From Stegostoma tigrinum (taxonomy: Eukaryota), in the NCBI RefSeq assembly GCF_030684315.1, contig NC_081361.1:41461045-41525044 (forward strand): a stretch of DNA of 64,000 nt, given 5' to 3'. Of this stretch, positions 10,409 through 62,269 are shown in pieces (the first letter of the stretch is position 1; every line of letters begins with the position of its first letter). The translations under genes and the position numbers were made by a program. The notes under the pieces were generated by a model, which worked only from the letters and a program-made list of their open reading frames with translations, ran no database searches and was not told the DNA's origin.

Positions 10409-10638
10409 CAGATATGATGGGAACTGCAGATGCTGGCGAATCCGAGATAACAAAGTGTGAAGCTGAATGAACACAGCAGGCCAAGCAGCATCTTAGGAGG
10501 ACAAAAGCTGACGTTTCGGGCCTAGCCCCTTCATCAGAAAACTTATCTGATGAAGGGTCTAGGCCCGAAACGTTAGCTTTTGTCCTCCTAAGATGCTGCT
10601 TGGCCTGCTGTGTTCATCCAGCCCCATATTTTGTTATC
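10409..10638. mobile_element. Fold-back (palindromic) Penelope-derived insertion with two hammerhead-like cores
   Basis: Arms 10445-10538 and 10546-10639; 14-bp TSD TTAAGTTTAGGTAT at 10395-10408 and 10639-10652. Confidence 0.85.
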
Positions 10639-10752
10639 TTAAGTTTAGGTATATAAGTTTTTTTTAAACAATTAGAAGTTCAAACAACAATATCTTTACA
10701 AACTCAATTCTCATAATTCAGGACATGTTTTAAAACGACTACTTTCCTTCAA

Positions 10753-11710
10753 TGATAATGGGAACTGCAGATGCTGGAGAATCCAAGATAATGAAATGTG
10801 AGGCTGGACGAACACAGCAGGCCCAGCAGCATCTCAGGAGCACAAAAGCTGACGTTTCGGGCCTAGACCCTTCATCAGAGAGGGGGATGGGGTTCTGGAA
10901 TAAATAGGGAGAGAGGGGGAGGCGGACCGAAGATGGAGAGAAAAGAAGATGGGTGGAGAGGAGAGTATAGGTGGGGAGGTAGGGAGGGGATAGGTCAGTC
11001 CAGGGAAGACGGACAGGTCAAGGAGTTGGGATGAGGTTAGTAGGTAGGAAATGGAGGTGCGGCTTGGGGTGGGAGGAAGGGATGGGTGAGAGGAAGAACA
11101 GGTTAGGGAGGCAGAGACAGGTTGGACTGGTTTTGGGATGCAGTCGGTGGAGGGGAAGAGCTGGGCTGGTTGTGTGGTGCAGTGGGGGGAGGGGACGAAC
11201 TGGGCTGGTTTTGGGATGCGGTGGGGGGAGGGGAGATTTTGAAGCTGGTGAAGTCCACATTGATACCATTGGGTTGCAGGGTTCCCAAGTGGAATATGAG
11301 TTGCTGTTCCTGCAACCTTCGAGTGGCATCATTGTGGCGCTGCAGGAGGCCCATGATGGACATGTCATCTAAAGAATGGGAGGGGGAGTGGAAATGGTAT
11401 GCGACTGGGAAGTGCAGTTGTTTATTGCGAACCGAGCGGAGGTGTTCTGCAAAGCGGTCCCCAAGCCTCCGCTTGGTTTCCCCAATGTAGAGGAAGCCAC
11501 ACCGGGTACAGTGGATGCAGCATACCACATTGGCAGATGTGCAGGCGAACCTCTGCTTAATGTGGAAAATCATCTTGGGGCCTGGGACAGGGGTGAGAGA
11601 GGAGGTGTGGGGGCAAGTGTAGCATTTCCTGCGGTTGCAGGGGAAGGTGCCGGGTGTGGTGGGGTTGGAGGGCAGTGTGGAGCGAACCAGGGAGTCACGG
11701 AGAGAGTGGT
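10753..11710 (-). mobile_element. Penelope-like retroelement, 5'-truncated, with GIY-YIG endonuclease domain
   Basis: ORF 11103-11573 reads CTSANVV..IHCTRCG.LYIGETKRRLGDRFAEH...LGTLQPNGIN; 11-bp TSD CTTTCCTTCAA at 10742-10752 and 11711-11721. Confidence 0.92.
10851..10878 (-). ncRNA. Minimal hammerhead ribozyme-like core in the Penelope terminal repeat
   Basis: CTGATGA-A-GGG-TCTAGG-CCC-GAAAC-GTC; helix III is only the ACGT palindrome and local helix I is about 2 bp, so activity is unproven. Confidence 0.65.
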
Positions 11711-12344
11711 CTTTCCTTCAAGAATGGTTTGAACTCACATGCAAGGCTTTATTTATTCTTGATACCTAGTCAATGGTCATAATTAATTTCATACTGATCA
11801 GTTCTTCTGATTCAGTCTGACTCTGATCCCAACACCTTGCAAACAAGGCAACTTCCCTTAACTTTCTAATGACCCAGTTATCTCCTATTCCTCCTTTAGT
11901 CTCGTTTTACAAGAAATATTCATGAGAATACTATGTTACCATCTTCCTTTATCAGTACCAATATACTTACATAGACAATATTTAGAAAAAGTAAATGAAA
12001 CTTTGGACAAAATATAGGTTTCATGTGGTTTTTCAAAGGGTCAGAAGACTGTAGAAAGGTCAAGAGCTGTAGGAAGGAGATTCCAAAGTAAGTCCATTGT
12101 AGCATAAAGGCTCTGACATCAATTGTGTAGTGGATGGGCGTGTATGTTTGGAAGGTTTATAGGATGCTGAACATAAAGGAGGATGTCAGTCTGCAGATGC
12201 AGAGGTAATGCCTTGTAAAAAGACATTTTACAACAGAATGAGCATTTTAAATATATGTATCAGGGGAAGAGACAGAATTAATGCCAAAGCAACAGAGATT
12301 TTGGCATTTGTCCAAAAATTAATTGAAGATTGTGCTGCTTAGAT

Positions 12345-13055
12345 TTTTTATTTCTTGTGGAGTGTGGACATTGCTAGCTGGCCAGCATTTAGCACCCATC
12401 CCTCATTGCCCTTGAGAAGGGGTGGTGAGATGCCTTCTTAAACGACTGCAGTCCACGTGCTGTTGATAGACTCGCAATGCCGTTACAGCCATTGCATTTA
12501 TATGATGAGTGAGTCCAGTTGAGTTTCTGATCAATGGTAACCCCCAGGACGTTGACAGCAATGGATTCAGTGATGGTAACATCATTGAATGTAACGGTGG
12601 TGGTTACATTGTCTTTTATTGGAGACTGTCATTGCCTGTATGGTGTGAATGTCACTTGTCAGCCCACGCCAGGTGATCATTCAGGTCTTGTTGCATTTAA
12701 ACATGGACTCCTTCAGCAACAGAGAAGTCACGAATGGTGCTGAACATTGTGTTGATGAACATCCCCACTTCTGACCTAATGATGGAGGAAAAGTCATTAA
12801 TGAGCTGCTGAAGATTGGTTGGGCTGAGAATACGATCCTGAGGAACTCCTACAGTGACGTCCTGGAGCTGAGGTGGCTGACCAGCAACCAAAATCATCTT
12901 CAGGTTGCCAGCTATGACTCCAACCAGAGGAGAATGTGTCCCAATACCCATTGACTGCAGTTTTGCTAGGACGACTCGACACTCTTGTTCAAATGCAGCC
13001 CTGATTTCAAAGGCTGTCACTCTCACCTCAACTCTGGAATTTAGCGCTTCATCCA
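12345..13055 (-). mobile_element. CR1/L2-group LINE fragment (second family)
   Basis: VTVGVPQDRILSP..INDFSSIIRSEVGMF RT remnant. Confidence 0.7.
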
Positions 13056-13239
13056 TAGATACTTTAGAAACTTTTAAGTGACTCTTGGATAGGCACATGG
13101 AGGATAGTAAAATGTAGGGTATGGAAGGTAGTTTGATCTTAGGAGAATAGGTCAGTGCAACATCATGGGCCAAAGGGCCTGTACTGTTCTATGTTCTATG
13201 TTTTAAATACTGACCTGACTAGTGAAACCCACATCCCAT

Positions 13240-16200
13240 CAGTGAATAAAACAAAACTCCATTTCCTTGGTTCTTTCATCCAGATCATTAATATATAATA
13301 AATAGCTCTGGTCCCAACACTCTCCGCTGCTGAACTCCACCAGTCACTTGTTGCCATTCTGAAAAATCCTCACTTTATCCCTTTATCTGTCTTCTGCCAA
13401 TTAGCCAATACTTTATCCACGCCAATACTTTGCTCCTAACACCATGGGCTTTTATCTCATAGAGTCACAGAGTCATAGAGTCATACAGCACAGAAATAGA
13501 CTCTTCAGTCCATCCTGTCCTTGCTGACCAGGTTCCTCATTATGGCTTTCCAAACTTAAACTAGTCCCATTTGCCAACATTTGGCCCATATCCCTCTAAA
13601 ACCTTCCTAATCATGTACCTGTCCAAATGTCTTTAAAATGTGCATCTACCACATCTTCTGGCAGTTCATTTCACTCACAAACTACCCTCAGTGTGAAAAG
13701 GTTGTCCCTCAGGTCCCTTTGAAATCTTCCCCTCACAACTTCAACCTATGCCTTCTAGTTTTGGACTCCCTACCCTAGGGAAAGGCATTATAAAAGATTT
13801 TATATACCTCTGTAAAGTGGCCCCTCAGCTTCCTCTGCTCCAGTGAAAGAAGTCCCAGCCTGTCCAGCCTCTCCTTATAACTCAAATCCTCCAATCCCAG
13901 TAACATCCTTGTAAATCTTTTCTGCACTCTTTACAGTTTATTAACATAATTCTTTACAGCATGACACCCTGAATTGTATGTAGTACTCCAAAAGTGGCCT
14001 CACCAATGTCCTGCACAGCCACATGACATCCCAACTCCTACGGAGGCATGGGATTGAGAGTGATTTAGCGGTTTGGATCAGAAATTGGCTAGCTGTAAGT
14101 AGACAGTGGGTGGTGGTTGTTGGGAAATGTCCATCGTGGAGTTCAGTTACTAGTGGTGAACCGCAAGGATCTGCTTTGGGGCCACTCTTGTCATTTTTAT
14201 AAATGACCTGGATGAGGGCGCAGAGGATGGGTTAGTAAATTTGCAGATGACACTAAAGTCGGTGGAGTTGTGGATAGTGTGTAAGGATGTTGCAGGTTAC
14301 ACAGGGACATAAGCTGCAGGGCTGGGCTAAGAAGTGGCAAATGGAGTTTAATGCAGAAAGGTGCGAGGTGATGCACTTTGGAAGGAGTAACAGAAATACA
14401 GAGTACTGGGCTAATGGTAAGATTCTTGGTAGTGTGGATGAGCAGAGAGATCTCGGTGTCCATGTGTATAGATCCCTGAAAGTCGCCACCCAGGGTGATA
14501 GGGTTGTTAAGAAGGCGTACGGTGTGTTAGATTTTATTGGTAGAGGGATTGAGTTTCAGAGCCACGAGGTCACGTTGCAGGTGTACAAAACTCTGGTGCG
14601 GCCACACTTGGAGTATTGTGTACTGGTCGCTGCATTATAGGAAGGATGTGGAAGCATTAGAAAGGGTGTACAGGAGGTTTACCAGGAAATTGCCTGGTAA
14701 TGGAGGGAAGGTCTTATGAGGAAAGGCTGAGGGGCTTGAGGCTGTTTTCGTTAGAGAGAAGAAGGTTAAGAGGTGACTTAATAGAGACATACAAGATGAT
14801 CAGAGGATTAGATAGGGTCGACAGTGAGAGCCTTTTTCCCCCGGATGGCGACGGCTAGCACGAGGGGACATAGCTTTAAATTGACGAGTGATAGATATGG
14901 GACAGATGTCAGAGGTAGGTGCTTTACTCAGAGAGTAATAAGGGCGTGGAATGCCCTGCCTGCAACAGTAGTAGACTTGCCAACTTTAAGGGTATTTAAA
15001 TGGACATTGGATTAACACATGGATGATAACGGAATAGTGTAGGTTAGATGGGCTTCAAATTGTTGCACCGACCTGTGAAACCATCGAGGGCCGAAGGGCC
15101 TGTACTGCGCTGTAATGTTCTATGTTCTTGCCTTCATTGGTCAGACCCTTGAGTAAAGTGTGCCAATGTCTTCATCACCACCAAGTCTACCTGTGACACC
15201 ACTTTCAAAGAACTATGTACTTGAACGCCTAGGTCTCTCTATTCATCAGTCCTCCCCAGGGCCCTACCATTAACAGTTTAAGTCCTTCCCCAGACGGTCT
15301 TACCGAAATGCAACACCTATCTAAATTAAACTTCATTCGCCACTCCTTGGCCCATGGACCCATCTGATCAAGATCCTGTTGTACCCTGAGATTACCTCTT
15401 TCACTGCTCAGTATTCCACCAATTTTGGTGTCGTCTACAAACTAACTAACCTTGCCTCCTATATTCTCATGTAGATCATTGTACAAAAAGGACAAACAAT
15501 AGTGGGCCTAGTATTGATCCTTGCAGAACACCGCTAGTTAAAGGCCTCCAGTCTCCGAAACAATCCTTCACCACTACTCTCCGTCTCCCACTGGCAAACC
15601 AACTTGTATCTAATTGGCTATATCTCCCTGGATCCCATCCAATCTAACTTTATTAACCAGTCTATCATGTAGAACTTTGACAAATGCCTTGCTAAAGTCC
15701 ACGTAGACAACATCCACTACTCTGCCTTCATCTATCCTCTTGGTCATGTCCTCAAAAAGCTCAGTTTTGTCAGACACAATTTCCCATGCACAAAGCCATG
15801 CTGGCTATCCCTAATCAGAGGCAGCTTGTCAAAGGCCTATTGATCCAAATAGCTCATGTCCATTGGCTCTCCTTTGTCAAACTTGCTCATTAGTTCTGCA
15901 AAGAGATTTGTCAGGCATGACCTCCCCTTAAGGAAGCCATGCTGACTCAGCACTTCCAAGTACACTCAATCTCATCCATAACAACGGGCTCTATAATCTT
16001 AAAAAAACGACTGAGGTCAGACTAATCGGCATATAGTTTCCAGTCTTCTGCCTCCCTCCCCTCTTAAACAGGGTGTTATATTAATCATTTTCCACTCCTC
16101 TGGCACCCTCCCTGACTCCAATGATTCCTGAAAGATCACCACGAATGCTTTGGTCCAGGTGATTAATCCACCTTCAGGCCTTCCTACATCTCCAGCATCA

Positions 16201-17945
16201 CTTTTCAGTGGTCCAACGTCCATTCTTGCCTCTCTCTCTTAGCTACATATATCTAAAAAAAACTCTTGCAATCTTCCTTTATATTACTAGTTAGTTTACA
16301 CTCATATTTCATCCACCCGCTTTTTTAGTTATACTCTGCTGGTTTTAAAGACTTCCCAGGATAATCTTCACCCATTGTATATTACTTCATTTGCTTTTAT
16401 GCTGTCCCTGACTTCTCGTCAGCCATGGTTGCTTCGTAATCCCCTTTGTATGTTTCTTTTTTCTAGTGGGCTCTACCACAAGCTGCTCCAACAAAAACAC
16501 CTCGTAGACATTCTGCAAATTCCTTTTCTTGAGATCCACTACCTATCTGATTTTCCCAGTCCACCTGCATACTGTAGTCCCCCATGATTATTATAAAAAA
16601 AGTAATTTTCTTACATGCATTTTCTATCTCCTAGTTTATTTTCTTCCCCATATCCTAACTACTGCTAGGACATAACTCCTATTTGGGTCTTATTTCCTTT
16701 GCAGTTCTAACCACACAGATTCTACACATTTCAACTCTTTCTTACTTCTTGCTATCAATTTAATTTGACTTCTCACTAACACGGCAACGCTGCCCCTTCT
16801 GTCCATTTGCCTGTCCTTTCAATAGGACATGTTTCCTCAGATGTTTAGTTCCCAGCCCTGATCCCCTTGCAGCCATGTCTCTGTGATGCCCACTACAATG
16901 CACCCATCAATTTCAGTCTGCACTACAAACTCATTTATCTTGTTTCATATATAGCGTTTATTGAAGTATGACACCTTCGGTCCTGTGTCGACTGCCCCCT
17001 TCTCATGGCTGTCTCCTTATCTGCTGTGCCTGAAGTTAGATTTTTAACATGTTCCATACTCTCTCCTTTTACTTGTTCTGAAAATTTTACTAACCTCTGC
17101 TGAGTCCTCCCTGCTTTTAACTTTTTCCATGCAACTGAACCCACCCTCCTAATAATTAGTTTAAAGCGCTGTCCACAGCCCTAGTTATGTGATTCTCCAG
17201 GGCTCTGATCCCAGCATAATTCAGGTGGGAGTCCATTCCATTGGAACAGCTCCCTCCTTCTCCAGTACTGGTGCCAAAGTCCTATGAATTCAAACCCGTT
17301 TCTCCTATACACCCAATCTTTGAGCTACGTGTTTACTTCTTTAATCTTGCTCACCCTATGCCTATTCCCTTGTGGCTCAGATAGAAATCAGAGATTAACT
17401 TTTGGTTCTACTTTCTAATTGAGCCCTTAAGCTGTTCATATTACCTCAGCAGAACGTCTTTCCTCTTTCTACCTATATGGACCATGACAACTGGATCTTT
17501 CCCTCCCACTCCAAGTTCCTCTCCAGCCAGATGAGATACCCGGAACCCAGCCAAGTAACATAACATTCAGGACTCTTGATCCTGAAAACACAGAAATGGC
17601 TATTCCTCTGGCTATACTACTCTTGATTACAACTACTTTTCTTTCTTCTCCCCCCTCTGGAATGGCTTCCTGTACCACTTTGGTCAGTTTGCTCATCCGC
17701 CCTACAGCCCCCACTCTCATTACACAGGGAGCAAGAATCTCAAACCTGTTAGATAAGCTCAAGGGCTGGTATCTCCAGCCTACCTCCTGGATTCCTCTAC
17801 ATGCCTCACTTGTCATCACGTCACCCTGTTCTTGACCGAATTTGAGGTAGTTAATCTAAGGGGCGTGACTGCCTTCTGAAACAGTGTCCAGGTAAATCTA
17901 CCCTCCATGATGAGTTGCAGAGTACAAAGTTCAGATTCCAGCTCA
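13240..17945 (-). mobile_element. Nested CR1 cluster: element A (-, 13240-13460 and about 15817-17945), B (-, 13461-14040 and about 15160-15816), C (+, 14041-15127)
   Basis: RT/C-terminal motifs (KFADDTK, WAKKWQMEFN, YKTLVRPHLEY); ORF1-like remnant LSLSNRFEIL..KVVVI near 17600-17770; separate 3' microsatellite tails. Confidence 0.8.
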
Positions 17946-20011: not shown

Positions 20012-20100
20012 TGATAACAGTATGGAGCTGGAGGAACGCGGCAGGCCCAGCAGCATTAGAGGAGCAGGAAAGTTGACGTTTCGGCTCGGGACCTTTCTTC
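20012..20100 (-). mobile_element. Short decayed Penelope terminal-repeat fragment
   Basis: Similar to the terminal repeat at 10785-10880 (gcaggcccagcagcat...gacgtttcgg). Confidence 0.65.
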
Positions 20101-20635
20101 AACACTTTTCACAACCACCAGCTTTCTCAAAGTGTTTTCCAGCTAACTAAGTCCATTGAAGTGTAGTTACAGTTGTAATTCAACATTTAACAGCAGCTAA
20201 TTGTACGCATTGCAAGGTCCCACAGACAGAAATAACCACAGATTATCTGCGGTTTTGAGAGTGCTAAGTATTGGACAAGATAACTAGGTATAATATTCCG
20301 GCTTTTCAAATGCAAGTGTCTCCCCTCCCACTCTGATTAAAGGGAGATTGCACCCAAATGAAAAATGTAGCAAATTTTATCCCAAGAATTGCCAGATTAT
20401 AGTCCAGAAACTTTGACTGTTTTCCTTTTCTCTTACCCACTATCCAATGCTTGGGATTGTTTTATCAAATTCAAGGTGCTCTATGAATGCAAGTCATTTT
20501 CATCTAGGCTCGGCACGAAGAACAGTCACCTGCTAGAACTGGCTATCTATGATACTAATGAGACACAGATTAGAAAAAAAGATGAAAATTCAATAAACAA
20601 AAATACCAAGTCTCATACTGTACTTCTGTTCACAG

Positions 20636-27146: not shown

Positions 27147-27818
27147 GTGATAATGGGAACTGCAGATGCTGGAGAATCCAAGATAATGAAATGTGAGGCT
27201 GGATGAACACAGCAGGCCAAGCAGCATCTCAGGAGCACAAAAGCTGACGTTTCGGGCCTAGACCCTTCAGAGAGGGGGATGGGGTGAGGGTTCTGGAATA
27301 AATAGGATATATTCCGCTTGGGAACCCTGCAGCCCAATGGTATCAATGTGGACGTCACCAGCTTCAAAATCTCCCCCTCCCCCACCGCATCCCAAAACCA
27401 GCCCAGTTCGTCACCTCCCCCCACTGCACCACACAACCAGCCCAGCTCTTCCCCTCCACCCACTGCATCCCAAAACCAGTCCAACCTGTCTCTGCCTCCC
27501 TAACTTGTTCTTCCTCTCACCCATCCCTTCCTCCCACCCCAAGCCACACCTCCATCTCCTACCTACTAACCTCATCCCACCTCCTTGACCTGTCCATCTT
27601 CCCTGGACTGACCTATCCCCTCCTCACCTATACTTTCCTCTCCACCTATCTTCTTTTCTCTTCATCTTCGGTCCGCCTCCCCCTCTCTCCCTATTTATTC
27701 CAGAACCCTCACCCCATCCCCCTCTCTGATGAAGGGTCTAGGCCCGAAACGTCAGCTTTTGTGCTCCTGAGATGCTGCTTGGCCTGCTGTGTTCATCCAG
27801 CCTCACATTTCATTATCT
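27147..27818. mobile_element. Penelope insertion with inverted terminal repeats in the DIO1 3'UTR
   Basis: Minus arm 27147-27307 joined to plus arm 27308-27818 (LGTLQPNGINVD remnant); 15-bp TSD TAGAC(T/C)GTAGGGACA at 27132-27146 and 27819-27833. Confidence 0.9.
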
Positions 27819-28421
27819 TAGACCGTAGGGACATGCTGGTGAAGGAAACTGTTTTACGTCCTGCAGTCTATTCAGGTCCTGAGAGACTGTTATTGAGGGC
27901 TAATTAATATTATAATCTTTTCATAGTTTCGACTGAATTAGAGACAATATTGGGGATGGTGTTGTTCTAAGTTGGATACGGTATTAACACTTATTTACGG
28001 GTAGCCTTTGATACAGAAACAGGTCTTGCAGAATGGGGCCGATAAGAATGGAAAGGTGTAAAGAAACAGTAATAGGTTGGCAGCCTACGAAGGGATGTTT
28101 GATTTAGTTTATCTGTAAGCATAAAATGTACTACAAAAAAAAAACAATTTTATGAATGAATGAAAGGAAACACGGGATAGTAAACAGAGCACTTTATCAA
28201 TAACTTAATTACGAGAATCATGATACAATACCTCACACACCGAATAATTTTTCTTCCATAGTCATATCATCAGATCCCAGTAACCGCTTTAAAACCAAGA
28301 AAATCACTAAATATGGAAGAAACCTTATTTGATTTGCTTGTATTATATCATTCATTTGCACCTGAGTGTGCCAATGAAAGCTATCTCAAGGCTTCCTGCC
28401 AGTAGTGATTCCACCAGTATT

Positions 28422-31169: not shown

Positions 31170-32225
31170 GTATAGATGGTGGGTACGTGGACAGTGCAGA
31201 GAGCTGTTCTTGGTTACAAAGGGACATTGATAGGATGCAGAGCTGGGCTGAGAAATGGTAAATGGAGTTTAACCCTGAAAAATGAGGTGATTCATCTTGG
31301 AAGGACAAACTTGAAAGCAGAATACAGGGTTAACGGAAAGCTTGGAGGAGCAGAGGGATTTTGTGGTTCATGTTCACAGTTCCCTGAAAGCTGCCACCCA
31401 GGTGGATAGAAGATAACGAAATGAGAGGCTGTATGAACACAGCAGGCCCAGCAGCATCTCAGGAGCACAAAAGCTTTTGTGCTCCTGAGATGCTGCTGGG
31501 CCTGCTGTGTTCATCCAGCCTCACATTTCGTTATCTTGGACTCTCCAGCATCTGCAGTTCCCATTATCACCCAGGTGGATAGAGTTGTTTAAAACGCATA
31601 TGTTGTGTTAGCTTTCATTAATAGAAGGGATTGAGTTCAAGAGCCATGAAGTTGTGCTCCAGCTATACAAAACCCTGGTTCGGCCACATCTGGAGTGTTG
31701 TGTCCAGTTCTGGTCGCCTCATTATCGAAAAGATGTGGAAGCATTGGAAAAAGTGCAGAAAAGATTTTCCAGGATGTTGCCTGGAATGGAGGGAAGGCCA
31801 TATGAGGAAAGGTTGAGCGCGCTAGGGCTTTTCTCTTTAGAACAACGAAGGATGAGAGGTGACTTGATAGAGGTGTACAAATTGATCAGAGGCATAGACA
31901 GAGTGGACAACCAGGGACTTTTTCCCTAGTGTGGAGGTAGTCATTACAAGGGGGCATAGTTTTAAAGTGGAGTGGAGGTAGATATACGGGAGTCATTAGA
32001 GGTAGGTACTTTAGTCAGAGAGCGGTTGGGGCATGGAATGCATTATCGGAGAGGGTAGTGCAGTCGGCCTCATTAGGGGCATTTAAGCGGCTACTAGATA
32101 GGCATATGGATAATAGTATAAAGGTAGGGGTGGAGGTTAGATAGACCTTAGAATTAGGGTTAAAGTTCAGCACAACATCATGGGCCGAAAGGCCTGTACA
32201 GTGCTATATTGTTCTATGTTCTATT
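31170..32225 (+). mobile_element. CR1 LINE 3' part, interrupted by a palindromic Penelope insertion
   Basis: [32 protein letters not shown]; (ttctatg)n tail. Confidence 0.9.
31411..31567. mobile_element. 157-bp fold-back Penelope-derived insertion centred on AGCT
   Basis: 63-bp arms about 31473/31474; 16-bp TSD CACCCAGGTGGATAGA at 31395-31410 and 31568-31583. Confidence 0.9.
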
Positions 32226-32530
32226 ATTTTCAATCTTTTAAAAAGAATTAGTTTGATTGAGGAAGAGAGACTGAAAGCATAGTAAAACCAGAGTGCAGTA
32301 ATTACATGAAGCAGCTTGAAACTAAACTATTAGAGAAGCACTCTCTATATATAGAATTGTAACCCAGTAGGGATGGTCTTCTTCAGAAAAAGCAGAGGGC
32401 TGAAAGTCAAATGCATTATTCTGTGCTCCAGGGCTTCAGCAGAAGAATAATATAAAACACAAAATAGAAAAACAAGGTGAAACGTTTGAACAGACATTGA
32501 CTTCATCATGAATGTCAAAATACTACATAC

Positions 32531-32916: not shown

Positions 32917-33145
32917 GGAAAAAAAACAAAAGAACTGTGGATGCTGTAAATCAGGAATAAAAACAAAGTTGCTGGGAAATCTCGGCAGGTCTGGCAGCAT
33001 CTGTGAAGAAAAAATTAGAGATAACGTTTCGGGTTCAGTGACCCTTCCTCCGAACTGATGGTGGTTGGGAAAATGTCAGTTTATATGCATATAAACTGAT
33101 ATTTCCCCAGCCACCATCAGTGCTGAGGAAGGATCACCGGACCTG
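32917..33145. mobile_element. Fold-back insertion of a second Penelope-like family
   Basis: Palindrome centred on ATGCAT 33085-33090; CTGAGGA..GAA core variant; 14-bp TSD AACAGATTACATTT at 32903-32916 and 33146-33159. Confidence 0.75.
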
Positions 33146-33751
33146 AACAGATTACATTTAATCTGATTTTGAAAAAGTCGAGGTAAAAGGGTCTGAGTAC
33201 ATTCCGCTGAAAACCATAACAATTGTTAGCAGCAGAATACATTTGGGGAAGTACATGAATAAGAAATGTTTGGAGGGATATGGGCCAAGCGGAGGCAGGT
33301 GGGACTATTTTAGTTTGGGATTGTGGGTGGCATGGACTGGTTGGACCAAGGGGTCTGTTTCCATGCTGTATGACTTTATAAAACGAATAAGGAATCAGTG
33401 TTTCAAGGAACACAGGGCTTTGTTTTATATTTCTTCTCCTGGTTTTCACCTCATGTGCAGTTCAACTCAAAGGGAATCACAGCTAATCTTACACTCACCT
33501 AACATTTACATTTTCCAATTGGTTCAATAATTATTAATTAGTAGGAGCATTCTCTGGGCTTTGTCTCCATAGGTGACTGACTTGCATAAACCAGCTTCAG
33601 TTGGGATGAACTAGCCAGCAGTCTGGGACTGGAACCTGGGGTATTATGGAATTATATGGACTGTAATCATTTACCACCTAGCCTTTGATATACATGAAAA
33701 GATAAAAATTTGATAAGGATTTGCAAACTCAAAAGGTTTTTTTTTAAATAC

Positions 33752-35294: not shown

Positions 35295-37270
35295 CAGATG
35301 GCATTCAGTCCAGTTCAAACTTAAAGTCATTCAGCTTGCAAATCAGACAAACTGTTGTGCAGCAGCTACAGAATTCAAGGTATCAAAGGAGAACATTAGA
35401 GATTGGAGAAAGCTCTCTCCATAGCTTAGGCAAATACCCACAAGTAAGTGTGCAATCAGAAGAGTGCCTAACATGTGGTGTATTGGGAAGTAAAGTTGCA
35501 AAAGAAGTCAGTTAAAATAATCCGAGTTCCTTAAGAAGTTACCTGAATTTCATCCTAAAACAAGCAAATTAAGCACTGCAGAATTCAAAGCCAGCCCCGG
35601 ATGGTACGTCAGTTTTATGAAGAGAAACATTTTTATTTAAATTACAGATTATCAAGATTTCACCAATGTTAAGGACAGGCTCATCACATTTCAATGGTTT
35701 ATAATCAAAACTCTAACCAAAGTGTGAAATCCATTGATCATGAAAACAGTACATACAAAGCTGTACTTATGGACATCCAATGGGAAAGGTAATGGTGATA
35801 TTCAGAAGAAAACCATACCAAAACACAACTCTCAGAGGAGTAAACAAGGTGTAGAGCTGGATGAACACAGCAGACCAAACAGCAGAGGAGCAGGAAAGCT
35901 GACATTTTAGGTCGAGACTCTTCTTCAGAAATGAGGGAGGGAAAGGAGATTCTGAAATAAATAGGGAGAGGCGGATAGAAGATGAATAAAGGCGAAGATA
36001 GGTGGAGAGGAAACAGATTGGTCAAAGAGGCAGGGTTGGAGGCAGTAAAGGTGAATGTAGGTGGGGAATTAGGGAGGGGATAGGTCAGTCCAGGGAGGAT
36101 GGACAGGTCAAGGAGGCAGGATGAGGCTAGTGGGTAGGAGATGGGGGTGGAGTTGAGGGGGGAGGAATGGTTAGGGAGGCAGGGACAAGGTAGGCTGGTT
36201 TGAGATGCAGTCAGGAGAGGGGAGATTTTGAAGCTTGTGAAGTCCACATGGGAACCCTGCAGCCAAATGGTATCAAAGCAAAATAGGAGTTGCTGTTCCT
36301 GCAGTCTTCAGGTGGCATCGTTGTGGCACTGCAGAAGGCCCAGGATGGACATGTTGTCCAAGAAATAGGAGGGGGATGTTGAAATGGTTCACAACTGGGA
36401 GGTGTAGTTGTTTGTTGTGAAACAAGCATAGGTGTTCCACAAACAGTCCCCAAGCCCCTGCTTGGTTCCAATGTAGAGGAGGCCACAACAGGAACAACAG
36501 ATATAGTATACCACATTGGCAGATGTGCAGGTGAAAATCTGTTTGATGTGGAAGGTCTTCTTGGGTCCTGGTAGGAGGGTGAGGTGCAGGGACAGGTGTA
36601 GCACTTGCTGCTGTTGCAGGGAAAAGTGCCAGGGGTGGTGGGGAGTATGGAGTGGACAAGGGAGTCACAGAGAGAGCGGTCCCTCCAGAAAGCAGATACG
36701 GGTGGGGAGGGAAAATTGTCTTTGGTGGTGGGGTCAGATTGCAGATGACGGAAGTGTCAGAGGATGATGCATGGATTTGGAGGTTGGTGGGGTGGTACGT
36801 GAGGACTAGGGGGATTCTGTTTTGGTTGTTATTGCTGGTAGGGAGCGTGAGGGATGAGTTGCGGGAAATGCAAGACACACAGTCGAGGGCATTTTTGACC
36901 ACTGTGGAGGGGGGAGTTGCGGTCCTTGAAAAACAAGAACTGTCTCCCAGAAGTAGTAGTTGCTCCTGTTCAGTATAGAGGGCAGTTGAGTGAAGGTGGC
37001 TTGAAAACAATGCTCAGGAAAGTTTGACGTTTCTGACAAAAAGGATTCTGTGGGGGGCAGGGGCAAGTTCTTCTCATCTGGGATGTGCTCAAATCAAGCC
37101 TCCTGAAGAAGTTATTGATTATTTTTGAAAGATTACATCAGTATGGAACAATTTATTTGGATCTGAAGATGACAAGGTGGGTGACTTAAGAATTTTAACA
37201 TAAAATTATTTTCTATTCTTTTAAAAGAATGAAATTGTATACATGAACATATATCTATGACATTTGTTTT
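35295..37270 (+). mobile_element. pogo/Tigger-type DNA transposon remnant split by a Penelope insertion
   Basis: FKLKVIQLANQTNCCAAATEFKVSKENIRDWRK and EFKASPGWYVSFMKR remnants at 35310-35630; right-hand extent uncertain. Confidence 0.6.
35841..36935 (-). mobile_element. Older Penelope-like element (RT C-terminus plus GIY-YIG, frameshifted)
   Basis: RIPLVLTYHP and FHIKQIFTCTSANVVYYICCSCCGLLYIG; decayed hammerhead core near 35900-35930. Confidence 0.88.
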
Positions 37271-45756: not shown

Positions 45757-48405
45757 ATAGAGCCATGGAAATAGTCTCTTTGGTCCAACCTGTCCATGCC
45801 GACCAAATATCCTAAGTTAAACTAGCCCCATTTGCCAGCAGAGATAATGGGAACTGCAGATGCTGGAGAATCCGGGATAACAAAGTGTGGAGCTGGATGA
45901 ACACAGCAGGCCAAGCAGCATCTTAGGAGCACAAAAGCTGACGTCAGCTTTTGTGCTCCTAAGATGCTGCTTGGCCTGCTGTGTTCATCCAGCTCCACAC
46001 TTTGTTATCTCATTTGCCAGCATTTGGCCCATACCACTCTAAAATCTTTCTATTCACATATCCACCAAGATGCCTTTTAAATGTTGCAATTGTATCAGTG
46101 TCTGCCACTTCCTCTGGCAGCTCATTCCATGCACACACCACTCTGTGTGTGAAAAAGTTGTCCCTTAGGTCCCTTTTGTATCTTTCTCCTCTCACCTTGA
46201 ACCTATTCTCTACAGTTTTGGACACCGTATAAGGACGTCTATAAGGTCACCCCTCAGCCTCTGAAGCTCCATGGAAAATAGCCCCAGCCTAATCAGCCTC
46301 TCCCTTTGGGTCAAACTCTCCAACCCTGGCAACATCCTGGTAAATCTTTTCGGAGCCTTTTTAATTTTCACAACGCCTTTACTATAGCAAGGAGACCAGA
46401 ATTGCGTGCAGTATTCCAGAAGTAGTCTAACCACTGTCCTGTACAGCCACATCATGTCCTCCTAACTCCTGTACTCAAAGAACTGACCAATAAAGGCAAT
46501 AACACGAAACACCTTCTTTACTATCCTGTATCCTTGCCACTCTACTTTCAAGGGACGATGAACCTGCACTTCAAGGCCCCTTTCAGCAACACTTCCCAGG
46601 ACCTTACCATTAAGTGTATAAGTCCTGCCCTGATTTGCCTTTCCAAAATGCAGCACCTCACATTTATCTAAATTAAACTCTGTCTGCCACTCCTGAGTCC
46701 TTGACCTATTTGATCAAGATCCCATTGCACTCTGAGCTAACCTTCTGTCTGTCCACTACACCTCCAATTTTGGTGTCATCTGCAAACTTACTAACCATAC
46801 CTCCTATGTTCACATCCAAATCATTTATATAAATAATGAAAAGCAATGAACCCAGCACCGATCTTTGTGGCACACTGCTGGTCACAGGCCTCCAGTCTGA
46901 AAAGCAACCCTCCACCACTAACCTCTGTTCTACTTTTGAGCCAGTTCTGTATCAAAATGGATAGTTCTCCCTGTATTCCAAACAATCTAACCTTGCTAAC
47001 CAGCATACCATGAGGAATCCTGTCGAACGCCTTACTGAAGTCCATATGTATCACGTCCACTGCTCTGCCCTCATCAATCCTCTTCGTTACTACTTCAGAA
47101 GACTCAATCAAGTTAGTATGACACAATTTCCCATACACAAAGCCAGGTTGACTCTCCCTAATCAGTCCTTGTCTTTCCAAATACATGTAAGTCCTATCCC
47201 TCAGCATTCCCTCCAGCAACATGCCCACCAGTTATGTCAGGCTGACTGGTCTACATTTCCCTGGCCTTTCCTTACCACCTTTCTTAAACAGTGGCACCGC
47301 GTCAACCAACCTCCAATCTTCCAACACCACACCTGTGGCTATTGATGATGCAAGTAACTCAGCAAGGGGCCCAGCAAACACATCCCTAGCTTCCCGTGGA
47401 GTTTTAGAGTGCATCTAATCAGGTCATGGGGATTTTACCCATCTTTTATGCATTTTAAAATGTGCACCACCACCACCACTGCTGTAATATGGACATTTTC
47501 AAGATGTCACTATTTATTTCCCCACGTTCTCTATCGTTCATGTCCTTCTCCACAGTAAACACTGATGCAAAATACTTGCTTAGTATCTCCCCCATCTCCT
47601 GGAGTTCCATACATAGGTAGCATTGATTTTTAAGGGGCCCTAGTTACTCTTCCGTCCTTAATGTATTTATAGAATCCCTTTGGAGTCTTCTTAACCCTAT
47701 TTGCCATAGCTATTGCATGCCCCCCTTTTACCTTCTTGATTTCCCTCTTACTTATACCCGTACCGTCTTTACACTTTTCTAGGGAGTCACTCGATCCCTC
47801 CTGTATGTACCTGACATATGCTTCCTTTTTATTCTTGACCAAAGTCTCAATTTCTCTAGTCATCCAACTTTTTTACACATACTAGCCTTTCCCTTCATCC
47901 TAACAGGAACATACTGTCTCTGAACTCTCATTATCCCATTTTTGAAGGCTTCCCACTTTCCAGCCATCCCTTTACCTGCAAACATCCATCCCGATCAACT
48001 TTTGAAAATTCTCGTCTAATACTGTCAAAATTGGCCTTCCTGTAATTTAGAATTTTAACTTTTAGGTCAGGTCTATTCTTTTCTATCACTATTTTGAAAC
48101 TAAATGGATTATGGTAATTGGCCCCGAAAGTGCTCACCCACATTCACCTCAAGTCACCTGCTCTGCCTGATTTCCCAAGAGTCGGTCAAGTTTTGCACCT
48201 TCTCTAGTAGGTACATCCACATACTGAATCAGAAAATGTTCTTATACATATTTGACAAATTCCTCTCAATCCAAGCCCTTTACACTATGGCAATCACAGT
48301 CAATGTTTGGAAAGTTAAAATCCCTACCATAACCATGCTATTATTCTTACACATACTGAGATCTCCTTGCAAATTTGTTCCTTCATTTTCTGCTGACTAT
48401 TAGGG
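45757..48405 (-). mobile_element. CR1 LINE (endonuclease through RT, decayed) in the intron after the first YIPF1 coding exon
   Basis: PLFKKG.KE.PG..RPVSLT, MDFSKAFD, SKFADDTKIGG and RLRGDLI. Confidence 0.92.
45841..46010. mobile_element. 170-bp fold-back Penelope-derived insertion centred on ACGT
   Basis: About 67-bp arms around 45942/45943; 12-bp TSD CATTTGCCAGCA at 45829-45840 and 46011-46022. Confidence 0.9.
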
Positions 48406-51783: not shown

Positions 51784-53190
51784 CCGTAAGACATAGGAGC
51801 AGAAATCAGGCCATTCAGCCCGTCGAGTCTGCACAGCCATTCAGTCATGGCCGATAAGCTTCTCAATCCGTTCTCCCACTTTCTCCCTGTAACCCTTGAT
51901 CACCTTGACAATCAAAAACCTGTCTATCTCTATCTTAAATATACTCAATGACTTGGCCTCCACAGCCTTCAGTGGTGGCAAATTCCATAGATTCACCGCT
52001 CTCTGGCTGAAGAAGTTTCTCCTGTTCTAAAGAGTTTTCCCTTTACTTATTTTATGCAGCAGCCTCCTGTGCAGCACTTTGTCATAGGCCTTCTGAAAGT
52101 CAGGTAGATAATATCCATTAGGTGTCCTTGGTTCACCTCCTCAAAGAATTCTAACAGATTTGTCAGCCATGGTCTCCCCTTGATGAAACCATACTGCCTT
52201 TGCCCAGTTTTACCATGCAGTCCCAAGTATTCATAAATATTATCCTTCACAGTACACTCCAAATCTTACCAGTGACCGAGATCAAGCCAATCAACTGTTA
52301 TTTCTTGTCTTTTGCCTCACCACCTTCTTAAACAGGAGAGTTACATCCAGTCCTCTGCGACCATCCCTAACTCCAGTGATTCCTGAAAGATCACCACTAA
52401 CGTCTTCACTATCTCTTCAGAACTCCAGGATGTAGTCCATCTGGTTGAGATGATTTATCCACCTTCGGACCTTACAGTTTTTCTACCACCTTCTCCTTGG
52501 TGATGGCCACCATACTCGACTTTGCCCCCTGAATCTCTTGAATTTTTGGGATATTAACTCGTTTTCCACCGTGAAGACTGACACAAAGTACTTATTCAAT
52601 TCCTTAGCCATTTTTTTGTTCCCCATTACTACTTCTCCAGTGTCATTTTCCAGCGGCCCAATGCCCACTTTTGCCCTTTATATATCTGAAGTAACTCTTG
52701 CAATTTTCTTTTATATTACTGGCCAGCTTACCCTCATATTTAACCTTCTCCCTCTTTTTTTCTTTTCTCATTGCCCTCTGTTGGTCTTAATAGGTTACCA
52801 AATCTCCTGGCTTTCCACTACCTTTTGCCACATTATATACTTTCTGTTTTGCTTTCATGTCGTCTCTGTCTTCCCTTGTCAGCCACGTTTGCCTCATCTT
52901 CCCTTTAGTATGCTTCTTTTTCCTAGGAATGAATTTTTGCTGTGTCTCCCGAATTACTCCCAGAAACTCCTGCCATTGCCATTTCATTGTCTTTTCCTGC
53001 TAGGCTCCTCTCCCAGTTAATTCTGGTCAGCTAATGTCTATGTAGTTGCCTTTATTCAACTCTAATAGTGTTACATCTGATTGTACCTTTTCCTTCTCAA
53101 ATTGCAGAGTAAATTCTATCATATTATGGTCACTGCCTCCTTAAGGGTTCCTTCATCTTAAGCTCCCTTATCACGTCTGCCACATTGCAC
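51784..53190 (-). mobile_element. CR1 LINE fragment
   Basis: QYGFIKGR..LTNLLEFFEEV; MAKELNKYF.SVFT.E. Confidence 0.85.
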
Positions 53191-54106: not shown

Positions 54107-54482
54107 ACAAAGTGTGAAACTGGATGAACACGGCAGGCCAAGCAGCATCTCAGGAGCACAAAAGCTGACGTTTCGGGCCTAGACTCTTCATCTGAGAGGG
54201 GGATGGGGAGAGGGTTCTGGAATAAATAGGGAGAGAGGGGGAGGCAGACCGAAGATGGACAGAAAAGAAGATAGTTGGAGAGGAGAGTATAGGTGAAGAG
54301 GTAGGGGAGGGGATAGGTCAGTCCAGGGAAGACGGACAGGTCAAGGAGGCGGGATGAGGTAGTAGGTAGGAAATGGAGGTGTGGCTTGAGGTGGGAGGAA
54401 GGGATGGGTGAGAGGAAGAACAGGTTAGGGAGGCAGAGACAGGCTGGGCTGGTTTTGGGATGCAGTGGGGGGAGGGGACGAG
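54107..54482 (-). mobile_element. Penelope 3' fragment lacking the terminal tail
   Basis: Highly similar to 10790-11160; 9-bp TSD CACAACTTA at 54098-54106 and 54483-54491; core mutated to CAGATGA. Confidence 0.85.
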
Positions 54483-54850: not shown

Positions 54851-56129
54851 GTAAATAGAAAACCCAGGTATTTTCTTCCTTAAATCATGCAGAAATGTGA
54901 TTTAATTGAGGAACAGTAGTTAGACCACACTGCATATGTAATATCAGCATATTATTGGATAATGAGCAATTGCTGTGTCCTTCCAATTCCCCACCTCTAC
55001 AATTCCATTTTAGGGGCAGTACTCAATGGGGACTAAAGACTTGTTTCTTCCAGCAAAGAAGCAGCCTCACACAAGCAGTCAGTGCATTTCCTGATGATTT
55101 CAAAATGTAATTGGTAGAGGCTGAGGAGCTGTTATAAAATCACACACTTAGGAGATGGAGCTTGTTGCATGTGATGAGGTAAAGAACTTTGTTGTGGTAG
55201 TGACAAAATTGATTGCAAAGTTCTTTATCTCACTATATGCATCAAGCTTATCTCCTGCTAAGAGTGTGAGCATATGACAACTCCACAGTCTCTGCCAATT
55301 CCATTTTGAAATCACCATTAGGAAAGTGCACTAACTGGTAGGGTGAGGCTGCTCTGTGCTGGATCAATGGTCTCATGCCCTGTACTGCATGTTTGTCCCA
55401 CTTGTGGCATCTTCACTGTTTCAATGAAAACATTTCTCAGTTCACAAAGAACCTTTGGAATGCTTTACCACCTTCATACTTCGTATAATCGATGTGCTTT
55501 TAAAACCCATCCACTACTTCATGCTTTCTTAATCATTTGCACTGTTTTCCAGTGCTGACAATATCTTGACTCTGGACTTTAGTTTCACACTCGGGATGTC
55601 CCACAGCATGTCAGAGTCAATTCTAAAGACTTGCATTTAGGGTATATCGTGTCTTTTATGAACATCAAACATCTCAAAATGCTTTACGGACCATGAAGCA
55701 CAATCACTGTTGTAATGTAGAGCACATGGCAAACAATCAATTTGTACACTTCAAACTCCAGCAATGTGATATTGACAAAGCACTATGTTGTTGTGATATT
55801 GTTTGAGGGATAGATATTGGACAGGATAGTGGAGTTAACTCCTCTGCTCTTTTAAATACTTTTTGATGTGTGCTTACTGCTGAAATGTAGGGCAATTAAG
55901 GCAGTAATATCTGAATAAGTTTATTGACGTGGTTGGTGGTAATGCTATCTATGTACATATTAATTAAGATAAATAGGATTTGCATTGGTAAATGAATCTA
56001 CAGCTTGAGACCATAAATTTAAGATTATCGTTATAGAGTGTGCTATAAGACATAGAATGTTTTATCAGTGGAAATAGAATCACCAACAGCTTTTAACAGC
56101 GATTTGGATGAATATCTGGAGATGTATGA

Positions 56130-56645
56130 AGTCATAGTGTTAGACAGCATGGAAACAGATCCTTCAATCTAACTGGCCCAGGCTGACCATGTTCCCAAAC
56201 CAAAATAGTCTCACTTGCTTGTGTTTGGTTCATATCCCTCCAGACCTATCCTACTGATGTACGTATCCAAGTGTCTTTTAAATGTTGTAACTGTACCTGC
56301 ATCCTCCACTTCCTCTGGCAGTTCATTCCCCATATGAACTCCTCTCTGTGTGAAAATGTTTCCCCTCATGTCCTTTTTAAATGTTTCTTCTCTCACCTTA
56401 AAAAATGCCCACTAGTTTTGAATTCCCTCACCCTATTCATCTTTTCTGATCCCCTCATGGTTTTATAAACCACTATAAGGTCACCCCTCAACCACCTCCA
56501 GTGGGGGGAAAAAAAAGTCCTAGTTTATCTTTATAATTCAAGTCCTCCATTCCTGGCAACATTCTGGTAAATATTTCCTGAACCCTCTCAAATTGAATAA
56601 TATCCTTCCTATAGCAGGATGTCCAGAACTGTACACAGTACTCCA
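56130..56645 (-). mobile_element. CR1 3' fragment
   Basis: EYCVQFW...RKDII..ERVQ; FTQR.V..NELPEEV. Confidence 0.8.
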
Positions 56646-60098: not shown

Positions 60099-60769
60099 GT
60101 ACGAATTTGTTCTACAGAACAATAAATTTTCACATTTCTAAAACAAAAATTGTTAGGAAACCTGAAGTCCAGTTTTGTATAGTGCCTTTTTTTAAAATTC
60201 AGTTTCACATAAAGACATTAATAATTGTAAATTAGGATTATTTCTAGTCTTAATTATTTTCTTTAAACCTCCATAAATCCAGCAGTTTTTCCAGTGACCG
60301 TGCTTGACAACAAAGGTGTTTTGTCAGATTTTGAACTGAGTTACAGTTCTAGCATTATATCACCTGAAATAAACTGGACAATCAACATAGTTCAGGAAGA
60401 AATTACAAAGTCTCATCGCATCTTGTGAGAAATGTCATGTTTATTTAAAATGTTGTCATTTGTTGAAATTTAATTTCACATGACTGCAGTTCTTCAAATG
60501 TGGTATTATTCATATTTTAAATGGGTAATTTCAGTTTAATGCACATTGTTTGTAATGTTATGTTCAAATAGAGAGAATACCTGACTCGGACCAGCAGACT
60601 CATATCAAAGGGAAAGCTAGCACTGTTTTTGTATGGAAGTTACTTGTTTTTTCAGATGTTGGAACTGCATGACATCATGTTTTATTTTCATTTTCATATT
60701 TTCAGAATTTACTTTTTTTTATTTTCACACTTGTGACTCATTTTGTAAAGAATGCGATATGTGTCAGCT

Positions 60770-61200
60770 GAAGTTCAGTTTGTAGCTCTCTGGCCTCTAG
60801 ATGATTATGATTTCAACTTCCATTCAGCAGTTTGAGGACAAAATTCAAAGCTGGTACTTCTCAGCACTCTTGAGGGATTGCTCCACTGTTGGAGGTATCA
60901 TCTTTTGGATTATCTGTTAAACTGGGCCTCGTTCTACTCTCTTAGGTGACGTAAAACATGTCATGGCATAGTTTTGAAGAGCAGAGAAATTAGCCCCAGC
61001 ATCCTGGCCAATATTTGTCTCTCAGTCAACACTACAGAAGCAGATTATGTAGTCATTATCATATTGATAGCTGTGTAACTTCACTGTTTGTAATTTGACT
61101 TCAATGTTTTTGGTATTTACAACTGTGACTACACTTCAAAATGTAGTTAATAGCTACAGAATGCTTTGTAATATCAAGCAGTCAGTAAAGGAACTGCAGC
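60770..61200 (+). mobile_element. DeuSINE-like element
   Basis: cctggccaatatt..tcaacactac..agcagattat..gtcattatc..gtgactacacttcaaa resembles the recalled Deu domain. Confidence 0.55.
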
Positions 61201-61301
61201 AATGTATTTTTCCTTCTAATCCAAAGTAGAATTTAGTGAACCTCACTTCAAAAATTTTAAATTTTGCTAATTTTAAATTTTGTTGTGCTGCTTTCCATCA
61301 G

Positions 61302-61403
61302 GCCTATTTCTTTGATCCTCCAGAACAGGTCAAAGCTACATTTGTAACCACAACCACCCCTGCCACCCTTAATGGAACTACCTTGGTATCCAGTAGAACA
61401 TAA
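61302..61403 (+). CDS. YIPF1: YIPF1 last coding exon (AYFFDPPEQVKATFVTTTTPATLNGTTLVSSRT*)
   Basis: AYFFD motif, Thr-rich tail with NGT sequon; TAA 61401-61403; total CDS 933 nt; donor gtgagt at 61412. Confidence 0.93.
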   Translation, partial: AYFFDPPEQVKATFVTTTTPATLNGTTLVSSRT

Positions 61404-62136
61404 TTTACCAGGTGAGTGTTTCCATACTCTCTGACCCTGGGAATGAGATATTAATACTGGGTAATTCACTGGCTAAAAAGCATAACTCAGACATCTCTGA
61501 TTGATTGCAATTGTTTTAACTTTAATCACATAGATTTCTGTCCTAATGCTGCTAATTTCTAATCTTAAAAAAAAACTTAATAAAATATGCTGCCTAATGA
61601 CTTAATGAGTAACTAAGGCAGGTACTGTGTTATTGATTCATGGACAACAGGAGAACCCAAGTCTGTGTTGGTTTAGTTGTTTCATTGAGGAAATTAGCCG
61701 ATGCTATTTAATTGGCTTCAATGTTTCTGGATTCGAGAAGTGGAAAAAACTTCAGAGAGAGTTTCTATCCATTAAATTTGCAGTATTGCCTAATGGAAAG
61801 TATGCATCAGTGAATGTCATAGAATGACAGAATTGGGCTTTGATTTGGTGCATCCTAAAGTGGAACAGCTGTTGATATTTGGTTCTATATGTAAATCTAC
61901 CTCAGCACTTTCAGGATGGTACAAAACCTGAAACTGAAATAGTTGACTCAACTTCATTAGCTTCATTCTGTACATGGACAACATGTTTACATTCTAAAAT
62001 TTACCAGCGTTTTCAGCTTTTTAAAAAAAATGTACTAACTTCTCAGAAGTTATTTTCTTTTTCATTAGGTTAAACTATTATGTTAGTGTTATGATCCCAG
62101 CTGATTGTTATTACTAAAAAAGTCAGATCCTAGACT

Positions 62137-62269
62137 TTTTTTCTGAAGAAGGGTCAAGGCCCGAAACGTCAGCTTTCCTGCTCCTCTGATGCTGCTTGGC
62201 CTACTGTGTTCATCCAGCTCTACACCTTGTTATCTCAAATTCTGCAGCAGCTGCAGTTCCTACTATCTG
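62137..62269 (+). mobile_element. Solo Penelope terminal repeat with intact hammerhead-like core
   Basis: CTGAAGA-A-GGG-TCAAGG-CCC-GAAAC-GTC at 62143-62170; 7-bp flanking duplication CTAGACT at 62130-62136 and 62270-62276. Confidence 0.8.

Follow-up and report, generated by a model that had tools for sequence, protein, structure and literature searches.

Inner junctions of palindromic Penelope-like insertions in Stegostoma tigrinum as a possible record of template RNA 5' ends

We analysed 64,000 nt of the Stegostoma tigrinum genome (NCBI RefSeq assembly GCF_030684315.1, contig NC_081361.1, positions 41,461,045 to 41,525,044 of the forward strand; this whole stretch is called the window), in which a hammerhead-bearing Penelope-like element (PLE) has left a family of insertions, several of them palindromic. 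A sequence-only reading had proposed at least nine insertions sharing a Penelope terminal repeat; indeed, self-comparison of the window finds nine copies of the family or its older relatives, at 10409, 10753, 20013, 27147, 31411, 35843, 45841, 54107 and 62139, and a palindrome of a second family is additionally present at 33028. The hammerhead motif attributed to the repeat is intact (CTGANGA...GAAAC) in five arms.

We number the element on its sense strand, with 0 as the last base 5' of the predicted hammerhead cut (GAAACGTC before the cut, AGCT after it) and +1 as the first base past the predicted scissile bond. Position 0 is C17, at window position 10851 in the reference copy 10753-11710. 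On this scale the CTGATGA core begins at -27, TTATCT extends up to +65, the tail ends at about +97 to +101, and the ATG of the open reading frame (ORF) lies at +139. The window insertions, with their target-site duplications (TSDs), are the following:

10395..10408: left TSD copy of the 10409 insertion, 14 bp, 0 mismatches (right copy 10639-10652)
10409..10541, minus strand: tailed arm of the 10409 insertion, its 5' end coinciding with the putative RNA start (-31 class), hammerhead core 10537-10513
10543..10638, plus strand: tailless inverted arm of the 10409 insertion, its 5' end likewise coinciding with the putative RNA start, hammerhead core 10547-10571
10753..11710, minus strand: solo tailed copy, 5'-truncated within the GIY-YIG endonuclease region, 11-bp TSD, coordinate reference
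20013..20101, minus strand: old degraded terminal-repeat fragment; a search for a TSD found none
27147..27818: long-class insertion, 15-bp TSD (27132-27146 and 27819-27833)
27147-27306, minus strand: tailed arm of the 27147 insertion, extending to about -60
27309-27818, plus strand: tailless arm of the 27147 insertion, extending to about -446 and so exceeding the tailed arm
31395-31410 and 31568-31583: TSD of the 31411 insertion, 16 bp; the host is an older repeat
31411..31567: perfect palindrome with centre AGCT at 31472-31475, the first four bases past the hammerhead cut
32954..33147: palindrome of another hammerhead-bearing family, whose stem II is longer, with its centre at 33087/33088; a TSD search gave none
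35843..36850, minus strand: older-subfamily copy, ~70-77% identical, extending into the endonuclease region
45829-45840 and 46011-46022: TSD of the 45841 insertion, 12 bp
45841..46010: perfect palindrome with centre ACGT at 45941-45944, the hammerhead helix-III tetramer
54107..54482, minus strand: solo tailless arm, candidate TSD of 9 bp
62139..62268, plus strand: older-subfamily tailed arm that begins just 5' of its intact hammerhead core (62143-62167), with no TSD detected

The insertions at 10409, 27147, 31411 and 45841, which the sequence-only reading had grouped by a common architecture, each consist of a tailed arm and an inverted tailless arm, with tails of 32-36 nt and TSDs of 14, 15, 16 and 12 bp, respectively. 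Their palindrome centres were said to lie at the ribozyme; they do cluster there, but at several points and not at one, namely the ribozyme start (10409), the cut site (31411) and the helix-III ACGT (45841), with the centre of 27147 far upstream. For the 31411 site, the window holds an uninterrupted paralog of the host repeat, with an overlap of ~15 bp at the insertion point. The insertions at 31411 and 45841 both sit inside older repeats that resemble long interspersed nuclear elements (LINEs).

Full units of the parent element measure ~3.56 kb and lie, each behind a partial copy, at loci L181-L183, a partial tandem arrangement that forms pseudo-long terminal repeats (pLTRs). The parent has a reverse transcriptase (RT) followed by a C-terminal GIY-YIG endonuclease (EN) in a single ORF: a frame of 675 amino acids at L182 matches the Pfam families RVT_1 (E=4e-6) and GIY-YIG (E=7e-4), both slightly short of the cut-offs, and the RT motifs can be read directly in L095. 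L095 and the window copy (11232-11714) also hold the DKG motif, VVY-CxxC-YI..ET and the downstream histidines, and both have a C-x4-C-x2-C zinc finger in the RT-EN linker. EN-containing (EN+) PLEs are recognized by DKG and by a CCHH motif with two cysteines between GIY and YIG, and a CX2-5CxxC zinc finger in the linker marks the Neptune or Nematis clade (PMC8557442; for this and every other paper cited by identifier, our statements hold for the accessible parts of the text). Since the element has these features, we assign it to the Neptune- or Nematis-type EN+ PLEs. A sequence search of the Protein Data Bank gave no match. Across the 3.2 Gb of the genome, a 25-mer from the tail has 75,177 exact matches, and 15 of 57 tailed arms picked independently of that pattern carry it exactly; from this fraction we roughly estimate ~3x10^5 tailed copies. 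Judged by their sequence, the palindromes are 5'-truncated insertions of this autonomous 3.56-kb PLE, which is Neptune-like by its linker, and not a separate hairpin element. The Penelope-like identity with a minimal hammerhead, proposed earlier, thus stands.

Locus-level counts come mostly from loci within the first 25 Mb of one contig (C1). Scoring of arm ends began with 555 arm hits, reduced to 481 without duplicates and to 416 after quality filters. We accepted inverted pairs with a TSD of 10-18 bp and used 376 mismatched flank pairs as a null, in which a single pair matched (1/376). Among 126 TSD-bounded inverted pairs, 120 combine a tailed with a tailless arm, 6 an intermediate with a tailed arm, and none two tailed arms; similarly, 32 of 33 pairs from loci picked independently of the tail are of the tail/no-tail type. 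When the TSD is not required, two tail/tail copies appear among 89 anchors (L108 and L113). The TSDs span 10-18 bp with a mode of 14-15, and their copies differ by 2.2% under an imposed ceiling of one mismatch. Pairs are 116-3762 bp long, ~70% of the TSD-bounded ones being shorter than 250 bp. The family of tiny non-autonomous hairpin elements proposed by the sequence-only reading is not borne out, as the junctions vary by copy and insertions with this one layout range in size from 116 bp to 3.8 kb; no fixed internal junction or length is shared, as it would be in a unit element of the kind of a miniature inverted-repeat transposable element (MITE) or a hairpin resembling a short interspersed nuclear element.

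The tailless arms had been described as always stopping at TTATCT. All four named arms do so, within one base shared with the TSD, but among the loci sampled only 22 of 97 scorable tailless ends are at the TTATCT length, which is the modal one, with the others at about ±5 nt; 48 extend to TTATCT. The outer ends of tailed arms are spread similarly or more widely. The supposed fixed breakpoint is actually a zone, and one already accounted for: in the PLE of Anolis carolinensis (Poseidon PAc), both target strands are cut and extended and the tail is bounded by two internal RT start sites (PMC11167929). Because two start sites delimit the tail, we read the TTATCT breakpoint as the second of them. 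An inverted pLTR with a tail, a TSD and palindromes at the junction is likewise known for PLE insertions (PMC3846280, PMC8557442). Thus, the outer ends of tailed/tailless pairs match two known RT start sites, the layout is the published PLE layout, and the reproducible integration route suggested earlier is upheld; the element and its layout are already known in kind, and it is the junction statistics that bear on open questions. Two further observations concern the outer ends. A TTATC motif precedes both RT start zones (+60 to +65 and +92 to +97), ~32 nt apart, with a small hairpin between. TSD ends are skewed in the 126 insertions, with A as the last base in 62 and G as the first in just 7; pairing of the target primer over 1-2 nt with the U-rich start zones, or a nick preference, may underlie this.

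The two arms of an insertion resemble each other more than arms of different insertions, diverging by 3.9% (335/8531 sites, 120 pairs) compared to 6.1%. At eight sites diagnostic of subfamily, the two arms agree in 85-95% of pairs (50-74% expected), while at two CpG sites they agree only at the level of chance (66/85 and 70/88); therefore the arms were alike at first and then aged separately. Homogenisation after insertion was considered and rejected, given the independent CpG decay and the similar divergence of short (4.0%) and long (3.7%) insertions. An assembly artefact, to which inverted repeats can generally be due when sequencing or assembly errs, is largely refuted and hardly credible here: the TSDs are locus-specific, the arms are ~4% different with independent CpG decay, and the joint of -31 to -31 recurs in 13, 14 and 17 contigs of three public runs that match the unique DNA of the window. 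These runs belong to one study and possibly to the same animal; their contigs match the unique DNA almost without differences.

The lengths of the two arms are also linked. The 50 TSD-bounded, tail-anchored pairs comprise 35 short/short, 13 long/long and 2 mixed pairs (p=3e-10), and in 31 of the 35 short pairs both arms end on the same side of the cut (p=9e-6). If the arms were templated by two separate RNAs from a single source locus, with each subunit of a protein dimer using its own, then shared subfamily sites, the existence of a few pairs that straddle the cut and the occasional tail/tail copies (L108, L113) would be accounted for, strand displacement would be unnecessary, and the dimer predicted for the anole protein (PMC11167929) would have a role. 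However, independent choice of the molecule and of its 5' or 3' copy predicts ~20 mixed pairs among 50, where 2 are seen, and the presence of the tail on one arm only in 120/126 is left unexplained; we consider this arrangement improbable.

The tailless arm extends further in the 5' direction than the tailed one in 20 of the short pairs, whereas the reverse holds in 11 and the two are equal in 4; long insertions in which the tailless arm exceeds the tailed one include 27147, L061, L066, L086, L090 and L110. A single cDNA (complementary DNA) that is primed at the tail and folds back cannot yield a longer tailless arm, so simple fold-back, the origin assumed in the sequence-only reading, is excluded. 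Perfect palindromes with self-complementary centres of 4 nt, near-identical arms and recurrent junctions (-47/+6 in both L108 and L118) are what one would expect of self-priming by a folded-back cDNA, of self-priming on an antisense template (PMC3846280) or of a non-autonomous hairpin family copied as units. The 20 of 35 short pairs, the long pairs, the heterogeneity of the junctions and the edges and extra G described below, which indicate 5' ends of sense RNA, all argue against these origins. Indeed, several subfamily haplotypes occur among perfect cut-site palindromes (4 examined), which thus arose independently. Together, such origins appear very improbable.

The inner ends, by contrast with the published outer layout, were scored in 222 arms outside the window that were chosen independently of their junction. 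Sixty-eight pass the start of the reference, and the other 154 end within it as follows: 12 at -100 to -40, 6 at -39 to -34, 39 at -33 to -28 (with a peak of 11 at -31), 44 at -27 to -9, 4 at -8 to 0, 10 at +1, 15 at +2 to +9 and 24 at +10 to +35. The steps at -31 and +1 are significant (p=3e-7 and 5e-5) with arms treated as independent, which they are not fully, as paired arms are included. The furthest end of each short insertion falls at -36 to -12 in 24 cases and at +1 to +24 in 11, with 0 between -11 and 0.

The edge at -31 precedes the hammerhead cut by 31 nt and falls on a TCT-like initiator. A pattern for arms broken upstream of CTCTCTGATGA had 10,553 matches; as in the break-pattern and small-deletion tallies below, 100 matches were listed, with the bases and +1 starts tallied by hand. 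Among the matches listed, the base before -31 is G in 35, T in 13, A in 3 and C in 49, so that G makes up 35 of 51 non-C bases, or 21 of 35 after removal of cases explained by the partner arm (p=8e-5). Similar results were obtained with the CTTTT subfamily (3,593 matches), in which G precedes a single C in 22 of 30 matches listed, again tallied by hand, and in 10 of 18 after partner-arm removal. In a scripted count, G precedes -31 in 10 of 13 cases where 3.7 were expected, with no excess in six other position classes, among them +1 (2 of 10). Of individual copies, L085 shows a TSD, then one G, then the -31 start, the G before the start of L215 belongs to its TSD, and the full-length copy L183 starts at -29. 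An extra G at 5' ends is stated to be a cap signature for L1 and SVA (PMC4859970). The TCT core promoter has the consensus YYCTTTYY around a C+1 start (PMC4102762), to which the -31 site, a start placed from DNA ends, conforms exactly in the CTTTT subfamily and with one mismatch in the CTCT subfamily. The match is cheap, because the stretch is pyrimidine-rich. The human form of the TCT initiator consensus fits both subfamilies. The promoter of Drosophila Penelope was reportedly studied by Schostak in 2008. A splice acceptor at the -31 edge was considered and rejected, with CCCC rather than AG upstream and only one G shared by the joined bases. We think it likely that a capped RNA starts at -31.

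The edge at +1 coincides with the predicted scissile bond. The core CUGANGA / GAAA / UH, stem II and a palindromic helix III are all present and match a minimal type-I hammerhead; N7 and H17 differ between families with the core retained, and stem II is 87% paired in the 9 degraded copies of the window. Perfect symmetric palindromes number 709 with AGCT at +1, 212 with GGCC at -12, 47 with ACGT at -4 and 23 with GGCC at +28, CpG decay being tolerated for the ACGT -4 and GGCC -12 patterns. A pattern for breaks from -4 to +9 had 13,060 matches; among those listed, 32 start at +1, followed by +8 with 12. Finally, small deletions across -8 to +4 (n=151) can be read as ending at 0 in 37 of the 100 listed, where placement alone would give 18. 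Arm ends also gather, to a lesser degree, at +6 to +8, with G before 8 of the 12 ends at +8 among the matches listed; this may reflect trimming, a second start site or chance.

Several observations weigh against taking the two edges as RNA ends, in addition to the narrow sampling given above, and part of them would fit an alternative in which the same twin priming and capped start act on uncut RNA, the +1 peak arising from RT pausing at the folded motif and from AGCT microhomology. The +1 excess over GGCC at -12, itself a numerous class, is just 3.3-fold, and the four palindrome patterns are unequal in length and degeneracy. Most +1 ends among the matches listed are AGCT palindromes (22 of the 32 starts are arms of 14 such palindromes), and the non-palindromic +1 ends, about 10 in number (4 of them microhomology-assisted), do not rise above +6, +7 and +8 (8, 8 and 12). 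The 10 arms at +1 in the 222-arm set include both arms of two insertions, 4 of 35 short pairs straddle the cut, and 4 of the 10 scripted G cases before -31 could be templated (6/9 left). The deletion test is inflated by 1-nt microhomology; the deletion sizes free of it give 2/19 and 5/11. The hammerhead itself has a helix I of only 2 bp, its covariation score on the 9 degraded window copies was reached in 61 of 500 shuffles, and the monomer folds that we ran showed no hammerhead (z=+1.5 in one run). The Rfam check proposed earlier likewise failed to support the motif: the scan of the window reported no hammerhead, and its microRNA matches are generic hairpins far below gathering scores. From other systems, mostly uncut RNA was used by the anole PLE in vitro, where ribozyme mutants inserted normally, and no RNA-seq reads started or ended at the cut (PMC11167929); minimal hammerheads of metazoan PLEs cleave weakly and depend on dimers (PMC4209133). 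The second family shows no clear peak at +1: ~10 of 100 listed starts (229 matches) fall there, like the noise at -2 to -4, although GTTAAC spans the cut there and weakens the comparison.

Several observations nevertheless speak against pausing on uncut RNA. Ends are sparse just 5' of the cut and become frequent precisely from +1 onwards, with 4 in the nine positions before that boundary and 25 in the nine after it. RT that pauses at stem II should leave its ends near -7. Compared with AGCT at +1, palindromes with the equally self-complementary ACGT, 5 nt off, are 15 times less frequent, and those with an all-GC tetramer at +28 are 31 times less frequent; the cut boundary is respected by both arms in 31/35. 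We therefore regard the version with uncut RNA as unlikely, and we lean towards cutting by the ribozyme at +1 in vivo, as judged from junction sequences.

The second family is older, PLE-like and hammerhead-bearing; its stem II is longer, its cut lies at GTT, and it also forms palindromes (32954-33147 in the window; L061, L065, L070, L074 and others). At L085, a copy of the first family with a TSD has inserted at the cut site of a hammerhead of the second.

The preferred reading is thus twin priming on one RNA, with cDNAs that run off its capped or ribozyme-cut 5' end. The capped RNA would start at C(-31) in the TCT-like initiator, followed in order by the hammerhead, the cut site (+1), two zones in which RT starts (around +65 and at +97 to +107) and finally the ORF; in a tandem transcript, both the 5' and the 3' end would carry a copy of the terminal stretch. 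As in the literature, the endonuclease would nick both target strands ~12-18 bp apart, yielding the TSDs observed here, and the two nicks would prime RT at the two zones of one RNA copy, giving tailed and tailless arms that face each other; a single RNA would be primed twice, with strand displacement. Priming on the 3' copy would produce long, randomly truncated arms, whereas on the 5' copy both cDNAs would run off the RNA end within ~135 nt, either at the cap (-31, with an extra C copied from the cap) or at +1 after the ribozyme cut. The cDNA ends would then be joined, often trimmed, via 1-5 nt of microhomology, and AGCT at +1 would self-anneal to give perfect palindromes. The parent element, TSDs, tail asymmetry, shared template, two edges and G excess that underlie the model come from our data; double nicking and two internal start sites come from the literature. 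We hold the model as a whole with moderate confidence. A literature search at the level of listings and abstract openings, with most subscription papers, Repbase and Dfam out of reach, returned no paper tying PLE junctions to a cap, a TCT start, a ribozyme cut or twin priming.

In LINE-1 (L1) twin priming, both target nicks prime on one RNA and the 5' part is inverted; the internal site at which the second primer anneals varies, and each of the two cDNAs covers its own segment. Unlike in L1, both start zones are fixed here, ~35 nt apart, and the cDNAs overlap; three copies (L093, L094 and L052) are L1-like, with only a tail and an inverted remainder. The untemplated G is shared with L1, in which it is read as the cap at full-length 5' ends (PMC4859970). 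Poseidon PAc resembles our element in its two adjacent internal RT start sites bounding the tail, in the cutting and extension of both target strands, and in a hammerhead just 5' of the start sites; it is of another clade, the linker zinc finger is present in the element here, and its start zones are within the ORF rather than in the 5' untranslated region as here (ATG at +139). For Poseidon PAc, cleavage showed no role and RNA ends at the cut were absent (PMC11167929), whereas here genomic junctions peak at the cut. Penelope of Adineta vaga is alike in the inverted 5'-truncated arm, the tail of 30-40 bp at one end only, the TSD, the palindromes at the inverted junction and the partial tandems forming pLTRs (PMC3846280, PMC8557442). 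Its TSDs of 8-10 bp are shorter than those here, and the rotifer paper invokes self-priming on an antisense template for the junction palindromes (PMC3846280), while our data fit twin priming on sense RNA. The minimal hammerheads of metazoan PLEs share the CUGANGA core, the unpaired base before stem II, the G10.1-C11.1 pair, the palindromic ACGU in place of helix III and the short helix I; the accessible part of that study holds no evidence of cleavage in vivo (PMC4209133), for which the junctions here would be an indirect genomic footprint.

Non-LTR retrozymes, reported from one chondrichthyan, are likewise short hammerhead-bearing sequences derived from PLEs (10.64898/2026.07.22.740005), but they are head-to-tail tandems with a ribozyme in each unit, whereas the palindromes here are head-to-head single insertions with TSDs and contain no head-to-tail hammerhead units. 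Tandem derivatives occur separately. About 17 of the 30 copies at L121-L150 that read past the tail run 90-290 nt into the 5' region (e.g. L130, L131, L135 and L138) and then jump, mostly to about -80 to -220 of the next terminal repeat, at varying junctions. These mini-tandems of ~330 nt, with a hammerhead in each unit, may be derivatives that resemble retrozymes, or may stem from template jumps across the ORF. At G000:C1:56285398-56286519, three identical hammerhead-start matches at a spacing of 543-544 bp mark a candidate tandem array of retrozyme-like type.

The window also holds other repeats. Fragments of older LINE-like repeats with 65-80% mutual identity lie at 13073-16466, 31212-32227, 46008-47165, 51789-52926 and 56130-56645, and about nine units of 71 bp stand in tandem at 38142-38795 (~95% identical). 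An imperfect inverted repeat of ~290 bp at 55060-55353, with three arm segments of 81-85%, resembles a MITE and has no relation to the PLE family; another, weaker inverted repeat lies at 9191-9422.

If this interpretation of the junctions is correct, and to our mind the chances for and against it are evenly balanced, tens of thousands of junctions would form a fossil map of template RNA 5' ends, recording a TCT-type capped start, hammerhead self-cleavage in vivo 31 nt downstream, continued use of the cut, uncapped RNA as a template, and twin priming with strand displacement on one RNA; the ribozyme could then act as a decapping switch between mRNA and template. The family offers predictions at the level of single bases, namely a capped start at -31, a 5'-OH end at +1 and two primings on one RNA, and the peak of inner junctions at the cut is a hint that the hammerhead works in the living animal. 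With ~3x10^5 tailed copies, many of them near-perfect hairpins of 100-250 bp, the family would be a large potential source of double-stranded RNA and cruciforms.

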